Both the position numbers and the translations under genes were made by a program. A stretch of DNA of 63,914 nt, filler included, from Collodictyon triciliatum (lineage: Eukaryota), in NCBI GenBank assembly GCA_043381765.1. It is 15 parts of 15 records of this genome, joined end to end, with 100 filler letters (N's around TTAATTAATTAA, not from the genome) between each part and the next. Parts side by side here need not be neighbours in the genome. Positions count along the whole stretch, not along the records: positions 28,151 to 32,711 come from JBHJMP010005967.1; 14 more parts are not named here. One strand, 5' to 3'. Each line of letters begins with the position of its first letter. Position 1 is the stretch's first letter. Below, piece by piece: positions 28,621 through 30,933 of the stretch. The notes beneath the pieces were generated by a model. That model was not told where the DNA came from and made no database searches. It worked only from the letters and a program-made list of their open reading frames with translations.

Positions 28621-30933
28621 TTATAAGAGCAGGCATTTGAACATTGCTTTCTTTCCTCCTGTGCGCTGCTTCGAAGGCTTCTGCAGCGAAAAGGCCTGGT
28701 TGGACTCTGTGGGCGTGGCTGTCTCGGCCGATGCGGCTGTATTTCCGCTCCCGACAGTCCCGCTGCTCACTGCGTTGCTACTCTTCTTTGCGCTGAGAGA
28801 GCCTATTGGTTGCGTGGCAATTGAATTGCGTGTCAGTGTTGGGGTTGTAAGCACGGCATTTGTCATTGACGTTGCACAATTAAAAAAGATGAGAAATGGG
28901 AAGCATACACCATATCAGATGAGATCAATTGAAAATAATAATAAACAGGAAAATTAGAAAGAAAAAAAAAAGTACCGATGCTCTGTGCTTCAGAACCAGC
29001 CATGAGAGACCCTTTGTTTACATACATTTCTGCCAAATCCTCAAATACTGTGTCATAAATCATACAAGATCAATACAATAGGAATAAAGACCAAACAAAT
29101 TAAATCGAAGGATAATATTTTGTTATTTTGAGTAGAGTGGGTCTTTTCTTTTCTTTTGTAAAATTGCGGTGGGGTGTAGACTGTACATACGATTGAATAC
29201 CTTGATTGACATTCATGTTTTCTTTGACACAAATTCGATAAAACTTGAGTCCGAGGCGATTAGATAGAGATTCGGCTTCCTCCCTAGTTGCGTATTTCGC
29301 AAAAACTTTAACAATCATGTCGGTAGTTTGCTCCCATACGTGTTAGTCACAAACTTAAGTGCTGACCAATAAACATGGCGAAGCCCATGGGTGCATGCAA
29401 ACGATTGAGACACAATAAATGTTTAAGAGATAAAAAAACAACTGAAGTGCATAATAATAATAATAATAATAATAATAATAATAATAATAATAATAATAAT
29501 AATAATAATAATAATAATAATAATAATAATAATAATAATAATAATAATAATAATTAATAAGCTACTTTGTGACGACCGCCTGGTCCAATAAATCGATTTT
29601 GTTCTGTACAAGAATCATTGGAATATCTGGGCATTCAGCCTCAACCTTCCGTTTCCATTTCTCCACATCCAAGAATGATTGCCTATCTGTGGTGGAGAAT
29701 CCAATCACGCATGCACCCGCACCTGTGAGTAATATGTTTGTTTTTATGAAGACTGTTTATAGTAATTTTGATTACTATTATTTTACAAAAACAGGAAAGC
29801 CTGGTTTGTTTTTATTTTATGTTGGAAGAAAGGGTCAGCCTTATACAGAAATTAAGCGCCAACAGGCAAAAGCGATAGGTGTTAAGGAACGAAAAGAAAA
29901 ACGATTAATTAGCTTCATATAAACCAAAATTTATGTAAAAGCAGAAAAATTGGAAAACCCTCGTTTATTAAATCTGATTTATAGTTTTACTCAAATAGAT
30001 ATGATCATTGACATAAAGTGCTTTCGTTAGTGGTAAGGAATGGGCGAGGGCTCACCTCGATAGTAAGTTCTAGTGATAGAATCGAACTCTTCTTGTCCAG
30101 CGGTGTCCCAGAGCATCATAGTCACATTTTCGTTCAACTTGGGGATGAAATGTTCTTTTTCCAGAAAATCAACTCCAATTGTAAACATCCAGTTGTCCAT
30201 TGAAAAACACAATACAAGAAGAGCATGTAATAGCCATGACAATTAAAAAAAATAGATCCGTCATTCTATCCAACAAAGCTTGGCTGAACGAACATTATAA
30301 TGAAGAATAAAAAGTGTAAAAACAGAGTAAAAAACACAGAATAAAACAAAACAATTCATAAAAAGAATAAATATGAATATAGTAAAGAAAATCTAAAACA
30401 AGTTTTATATTCAAAAAAGATGCGATGTCGAGTTTGTATGAATTTTTTTCAGAAAAAAAGAAACATAGAAACTCTGCGATGGTTAAGTAGAGGCATAGAT
30501 GAGCTGGTATGTTTTTTTGTATGTGTCTGTGAAGGTGCCATGAGCAAAGCGTTTGATAAGACTTGTCTTCCCAATCGAACCATTCCCAACAACAATAACT
30601 TTAATGGCCGCTGTACGAATTAAAACACTTTAAGCTGTTGTTCAGTCGATCAAGTATGAAAAATTGGCACGAAAAAAAAAAGTTCCATGGGGTGGAACTA
30701 GTTATTTTCCTTTATATATAAACAAATATATAATAATCACATTTTAAGCCTCGCTGTTTAGACTTTTAAATCGTTGAAACGAAGACATAGGCAGATAGCA
30801 CAAAAATACACCAGCAAAAGGCCGCTTTGGACTAAAATAAAACAAAAACAACCAATGAACAGGAACTCTCGGTCACTAAAAAAGAAAAATAAAGAAAAAA
30901 AAACCACTTGCTTTCAAAGTCGGTCTGCTCCAT
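28621..30933 (-). CDS. RAB23: Rab23 small GTPase, 6 exons
   Basis: MEQTDFETAIKVIVVGNGSIGKT...TDTYKKTIGVDFLE...MLWDTAGQEEFDSITRTYYRGAGACVIGFSTTDRQSF...LVQNKIDL; ends in CAAX (CLLL*). Confidence 0.93.
30181..30510 (-). other. AT-AC intron (330 nt) in Rab23
   Basis: YKK-AC|ATACCAGC...GATGTTTAC|A-ATT-GGA restores the conserved KKTIGVDF; no GT-AG pair does. Confidence 0.85.

Follow-up and report, generated by a model that had tools for sequence, protein, structure and literature searches.

The Rab23 gene of Collodictyon triciliatum raises the question of which splicing machinery removes an AT-AC intron whose donor fits neither spliceosome consensus. We analysed a stretch of 63,914 nt, made of short contigs put together with N runs in between (the window), in which the Rab23 piece is contig G000:C5967 and the gene runs on the minus strand. 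The coding part of exon 1 (30912..30933) begins with the ATG at 30933, and RNA contigs extend to 30982. It is followed by a 301-nt GC-AG intron of the ordinary major type (30611..30911, placed from pieces of RNA contigs and the sequence) and by exon 2 (30511..30610), which runs from the P-loop to YKKT and ends in the A run AAAAAAC. The AT-AC intron (30181..30510, 330 nt) has its first donor base at 30510 and its last acceptor base at 30181 (ATACCAGCTC...GGATGTTTAC), and splits the Thr codon of YKKT/IGVDF in phase 2. Exon 3 (30056..30180) encodes IGVDF to YYR and is separated from exon 4 (29566..29722) by a 333-nt GT-AG intron (29723..30055), seen as a 333-nt skip in RNA contigs with its coordinates taken from the sequence. 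Exons 2 to 4 and the AT-AC intron were placed by RNA contigs and sequence together. Other pieces of the window were read by eye as a DEAD-box helicase (12107-12850), a cyclin (26122-26916), BBS7 (41633-42085) and a P450 (44927-45791).

RNA contigs from four runs (three studies) were used to examine the junction; the RNA status of two of these runs, X1 and X2, is an automatic guess. Contigs of three runs (X1, X2, X4) skip exactly 330 nt. The skip in X3 measures 329 nt, which corresponds to the identical junction plus a single additional base in the A run. The intron originally predicted between YKKT and IGVDF is thus real and spliced. Four placements yield the same mRNA (AC..TT, CA..TA, AT..AC, TA..CA) and none of them is GT-AG or GC-AG; for another intron (locus L229) of the class described below, AT-AC is the sole possible placement. 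An unspliced X1 contig (30153-30539, depth 3.8) keeps the donor ATACCAGC, with no correction to ATATCC; it carries five substitutions and four indels within the intron, and the donor and positions 30260-30274 are free of them. The first four exons, when joined, encode 134 residues, 129 of which are identical in Rab23 of Diphylleia rotans (P0090); this places the host organism close to D. rotans (CRuMs). The same intron is retained in two D. rotans transcripts, where it finishes in the same codon. RNA support covers the Rab23 member, and the ten other introns of the class are predicted.

The donor consensus of U2-type AT-AC introns is ATAAGT. The Rab23 donor, ATACCAGCT (30502..30510), begins with ATACCAG and has C rather than G at +5. 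Canonical U12 AT-AC introns combine an RTATCCTT donor with a TTCCTTRAC branch site (PMC2846911, bioRxiv 2020.10.12.336362), and one C at +5/+6 of the donor may be T (PMC2846911). ATACCAG breaks this rule over +4..+8 and therefore lies outside both consensuses, as had been claimed.

We used an exon-anchored pattern to search the genome for similar introns. Nine of its 25 matches were genes that we take to belong to the Rab5/22 clan (Rab subfamily labels are our own throughout), all with ATACCAG at WDTAGQE in phase 1, and in all nine an AC acceptor restored the conserved peptide. Their position is unrelated to that in Rab23 (phase 2). The peptides flanking the ten Rab introns are 34-98% identical, and just one pair of introns aligns at length.

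All ten Rab introns contain an internal element, (GTT)RGA(T)N3-4RTGAC, whose A is 68-114 nt away from the 3' end; in Rab23 it reads GTTGGATAGAATGAC (30260..30274), and the A predicted to form the branch is at 30261, a distance of 81 nt. The background rate is 1.6% per 60 nt. Since these ten introns also served to define the element, the Abitram-like and D. rotans cases below serve as independent checks. The original prediction had pointed to ttttcaat near the 3' end as branch-like, but the best match to TTCCTTRAY in this region had two to three mismatches in 10/10 class introns, the mode for shuffled sequence, compared with one mismatch in all four canonical U12 introns of this genome in the same test; ttttcaat is likely the wrong branch site. 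From the element to the acceptor, AG occurred 0 times in 920 dinucleotides (ten introns) against 27.6 expected, while GA occurred 29 times against the same expectation and AG was counted 27 times upstream. The last AG lay no more than 13 nt upstream of the element's A in 8/10 introns, partly since the element often holds an AG itself. The 30 nt after the element are 53-77% pyrimidine in the ten introns; in Rab23 the AG-free tract (30181..30259) starts pyrimidine-rich and ends with the TAC acceptor. Class acceptors are YAC, and the AC that is used was not the first YAC past the element in 9/10 introns, so acceptor choice is not explained by simple scanning.

A branch motif followed by a long AG-free zone is a hallmark of distant branch points (PMC1431707), and the TGAC adenosine of the element is quite probably the branch point. 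A D. rotans ORF that retains the intron (P0001) starts M-T-G (ATG-ACN-GGN) 116 nt before the junction and lacks K, E and Q in its 38 residues; this protein-level sequence is what conservation of the element and of an AG-poor tract in D. rotans would produce. Around the Rab23 element, neither the C nor the D box of a box C/D snoRNA was recognised by eye. Computed pairing in cis of donor, element and 3' end was no better for an intron with itself than for crossed or shuffled combinations, and folding of the AG-free tracts was not unusual in 8/10.

A gapped donor-plus-element pattern gave 32 matches against 12 in the control. Six were already known, and nine of the 26 new matches were read (eight picked by eye as intron-like, one examined before). 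One of these is a further candidate member, G000:C2572:1074-1261 (188 nt), in a gene that we presumptively call Abitram-like from recall and an Atlas lead (0.84), with Pfam giving no support. Besides an open joined frame it shows TTGGAT, GG following TGAC, an AG-free tract of 86 nt and a TAC end; none of these features formed part of the search pattern, which makes them out-of-sample. AG-free length is a weak criterion by itself, a run of at least 66 nt being found at 18 of 483 other element-like sites, so the case rests on the extra matches. The other eight candidates and ~170 matches of four other patterns yielded no further member.

With this intron included, donor positions +1..+7 are invariant (ATACCAG) in 11/11 introns and +8 is T in 8/11. 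The hosts are Rab genes in ten cases (Rab23 and nine of the Rab5/22 clan) and the Abitram-like gene in one, and the introns sit at three unrelated positions. The upstream exons of all 11 end in A runs, unlike those of the four canonical U12 introns, with nine of the 11 sharing one position. The introns likely form a separate small class that fits neither known splicing code, which supports the original view of the donor as a lineage-specific signal. The idea of a relic, decaying intron did not survive, as +1..+7 is invariant in introns whose remainder mostly fails to align. The class looks small, at 11 found, with weak detection outside conserved genes.

Several broader searches were also carried out. 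The ATAYCVGCTC donor pattern gave no convincing donor among 30 of 615 matches read. An extended donor, ATACCAGYYCA, matched 132 times (control 96); 70 matches were read, and Pfam on 72 frames confirmed a single Rab donor. The ATACCAGTCYWTY pattern matched 33 times (control 21), and the 30 read included four Rab genes and no other confirmed case. A strict form of the element matched 42 times (control 28); among the 39 new places read, six were one microsatellite-linked repeat and one candidate was, by eye, RasGEF-like coding sequence. A repeat of ~480 nt (L300, L302, L304-L307; six copies read) closes with a copy of the element near to consensus, together with a GTAT microsatellite, and no link was shown. 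No intron at T/IG in other Rab genes was seen among 56 pattern matches. Intron scans of ~856 kb with a coding model or with signals alone lacked power, their positive controls scoring as background; a metagenome scan gave a single chance locus, and neither a search for the SPC25 family nor one protein search with a short ORF gave a match.

To look at the same positions in other organisms we used read-through ORFs, in which an exon running into its intron reveals the donor at the protein level (codons are not visible). Among the 120 ORFs listed (of 881) for the Rab5 site, 11 continue as GQE-NIL, the reading expected from A/ATATCCT, and no NTS or NTR read-through occurred among these 120; one GQE-NIL ORF that was compared matched mammalian Rab5. 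At the Rab23 site, YKKT-YP was found in four and YKQT-YLY in one of the 150 ORFs listed (of 513), and P0005 carries the whole intron in frame as far as T/IGVDF, so that this intron position recurs elsewhere with a U12-like donor as read from protein. Both sites are likely old U12 positions, and the class is likely descended from U12-type introns. The simplest reading is that the change to new signals took place in this lineage; the new signals may instead be the older state. Mimicry of the next exon by read-through was considered as well and rejected, as it suits the Rab5 site and not the Rab23 or Abitram-like site.

We then asked what minor spliceosomal components the genome (14,576 contigs) encodes. 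RNA family searches, in which 40-50 candidates each were scored, identified U6atac (75.7 bits), U11 (55.3) and U12 (72.1), and a U4atac-like gene at 47.4 bits, below the cut-off of 53. The recognition sequences of U11 (AAAAAGGG) and U12 (GUAAGGAA) are canonical. The U6atac box is GCCGA instead of AAGGA, a 'CC variant' known from lineages with ordinary U12 donors that pair poorly with it (PMC2396436). Restoring the reading frame revealed four textbook U12 AT-AC introns, two in POLD1 and one each in POLA1 and Rab7. A minor spliceosome co-varied genome-wide, which the original prediction had proposed and which the GCCGA box at first favoured, was dropped: U11 and U12 are canonical, the CC variant is published and textbook U12 introns coexist, so the minor system has not been rewired as a whole. 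The Rab7 intron (L058:1192-1345) lies on a more GC-rich contig whose origin is assumed.

U1 and U6 are canonical, and there were six U2 matches. Two U2 variants, G000:C532:4910-5104 (L342) and C13612:568-762 (L343), have branch recognition changed at the same base (GUACUA, GUAAUA). Both also differ from canonical U2 in stem I and loop IV in the same way and have a conserved element upstream; they are functional variants or pseudogenes. A divergent U1 copy (G000:C3353:4367-4528, L219, 76.7 bits) has one change in its 5' pairing region, and G000:C517:15469-15516 (L276), a U6 5' half followed by a TAT microsatellite, is likely a truncated copy. The genome search revealed no second U11, a candidate at C896 proving on inspection not to be an snRNA. 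No second U6atac was present among 20 of 30 pattern matches read, the other ten being seen as 15-mers, and no U12-like complement of the element was found in the assembly. U6/U6atac cores with a YTGG box matched four times (control 1), at G000:C3362:703-718(-), C4253:629-644(-), C1280:6678-6693 and C2625:4557-4574, none of them in the 30-match U6atac list. The first two are short U6atac-like cores after TTGG, which would pair with CCAG in register, at about chance level. Across all these genome searches no snRNA matching the new donor or element signals was found.

Duplex energies were computed for the class signals; U6atac positions follow the customary numbering. Donors paired better with U11 (-2.3 to -6.0 kcal/mol) than with U1 (-1.1 to -1.9 kcal/mol) in 10/10 cases, the U11 pairing being about equal to that of canonical donors, and pairing with U6 ranged from +0.9 to -3.5 kcal/mol. 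CC-type U6atac pairs in register with +5 and +7 in 10/10 donors and with +8 in 9/10, but its duplex is stronger than that of AG-type U6atac for Rab23 alone (-7.2 vs -4.0), with one tie and eight weaker. The invariant C+4 and A+6 mismatch U6atac, and A+6 mismatches U11 too. The element exceeded shuffled sequences with U12 in 4/10 introns and with U2 in 1/10, while by raw energy the U2 duplex was stronger than the U12 duplex in 8/10; the two U2 variants paired better than canonical U2 with three and none of ten elements. In the element, purines stand where the U12 branch site has its core CCT, which weakens U12 pairing.

Our best reading, to which we give a probability of roughly 0.4, is that these introns are a U12-derived class removed by the minor spliceosome through a distant TGAC branch with the help of a putative class-specific factor. 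U11 would grip the donor through two G-C pairs at +4/+5. The element would act as the branch site, GTTR pairing with UAAC of U12 and TGAC with GUAA around a purine-rich mismatch loop, a tentative arrangement. CC-type U6atac could then take over the donor at +5, +7 and +8. AG is excluded downstream, perhaps because it would capture the second step, and the A-rich exon end together with YAC may set the acceptor; exon ends in A runs would suit pairing with the U5 loop. A putative class-specific protein or RNA factor would assist recognition, and is invoked because none of the snRNAs that we found accounts for C+4, A+6 or the purine run.

Alternatively, a dedicated second set of minor-like snRNAs (U11-, U12- and U6atac-like) with altered recognition would constitute, in diphylleids, a third spliceosomal code beside U2 and U12, one that reads ATACCAG and a distant GTTRGAT-RTGAC and took over some ancient minor introns. 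The same donor and element at three unrelated positions, while other minor introns remain canonical, would be expected of it, as would the mismatches at C+4 and A+6; the spacing of GTTR, 7 nt and TGAC equals an extended complement of U12, and an assembly in 14,576 contigs, with 40-50 candidates scored per family, leaves room for such genes. The searches for a second U11, U6atac or U12-like complement, which came back empty within the scope given above, and the small size of the class speak against it, and we consider it unlikely. Handling by a permissive major spliceosome had been suggested together with the relic idea; the relic part falls with the invariant donor, and we retain the rest as a more doubtful alternative, a switch to the major spliceosome with AT-AC ends kept. 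The donor ATA(CC)AGT would then be ATAAGT with two bases added and RTGAC a U2 distant branch. The order of branch, tract and AG exclusion is that described for U2-type distant branch points (PMC1431707), the stronger raw U2 duplexes point the same way, and neighbouring GT donors in Rab genes are very loose at +3..+6. Pairing of the class donors with U1 and U6 is nevertheless weak, the T that such a donor would have at +8 is present in 8/11, and a loose major spliceosome leaves the invariant CC and the GAT half of the element unexplained.

The element might alternatively be a regulatory or protein-binding site in ordinary minor introns that share a regulator and use a weak proximal branch near the AC, which we hold to be improbable and rank below the major-spliceosome switch. 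A loose T-Y-G-D word lies 11-15 nt from the 3' end in 9/10 introns, the distance of the TTTGA branch site reported for Physarum (bioRxiv 2020.10.12.336362), and a common regulator would suit a class with ten of 11 hosts among Rab genes. The word is frequent elsewhere in the same introns, however, and AG exclusion reaches back to the element, needlessly so for a proximal branch. The lowest place goes to a hybrid spliceosome, very unlikely in our view, with U11 and U6atac at the donor and U2 and U2AF-type proteins at the distant branch and tract. Mixed machineries have been proposed (PMC11347168), and the pairing computations divide in this way, the 5' end favouring U11 and the element, by raw energy, U2. 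The genome does hold the two U2 variants altered at a branch-recognition base, but they outdo canonical U2 for just three and none of the elements. Also against a hybrid, U11 works together with U12 in a single particle, and the catalytic core contains U6atac paired to U12.

If the reading as a U12-derived class is correct, a set of ancient minor introns has changed its donor and gained a new, distant branch-like element together, in a genome that still contains canonical minor introns. Minor-intron signals are usually held nearly fixed, Physarum being the one published case of co-change that we found. The class would then show a new way for minor introns to switch class, or else a third system of recognition. 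Classifiers that rely on motifs would not score such introns as minor, and similar classes may therefore go unseen in other protists. The class also offers a testable approach to the CC variant of U6atac, so far unexplained. The literature searched contains no report of diphylleid nuclear introns or snRNAs or of an ATACCAG donor; supplementary intron tables could list similar cases.

Like canonical U12 introns, the class introns have AT-AC ends with a YAC acceptor, lie in phase 1 or 2, sit where other eukaryotes have what reads as a U12 donor, and occur in a genome with minor snRNAs. They differ in that the donor breaks the +4..+8 rule and that a distant element with an AG-free tract takes the place of a proximal TTCCTTRAY. 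A pyrimidine tract is distinctive of U2-type introns (PMC8329584). U2-type AT-AC introns, 85 of which are mentioned for human as major AT-AC-type introns in PMC8280824, are similar in having AT-AC ends without the U12 consensus; the class has no G at +5 (C in 11/11), an invariant CC at +4/+5 and a conserved bipartite element. U2-type distant branch introns (Gooding et al. 2006, PMC1431707) share the branch-like TGAC, pyrimidine tract and AG-free zone but stop at the first AG, whereas the class introns have AT donors and AC ends, and do not use the first YAC. The GCCGA box is the same as in the U6atac CC variant of Davila Lopez et al. 2008 (PMC2396436); that study reported no introns pairing with it, while here G+7 and Y+8 are complementary in register, with the computed gain confined to Rab23. 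Physarum polycephalum (Larue, Elias, Roy; bioRxiv 2020.10.12.336362) likewise has lineage-specific minor signals first seen in GTPase genes and, like the genome studied here, carries a CC-type U6atac (PMC2396436). Physarum differs in keeping RTATC(C/T)TT donors, with one altered branch motif 10-12 nt from the intron end and matching changes in U12, genome-wide. Here, donor and branch signal are both altered, U12 is canonical, and the class is small and stands beside canonical minor introns in one genome.
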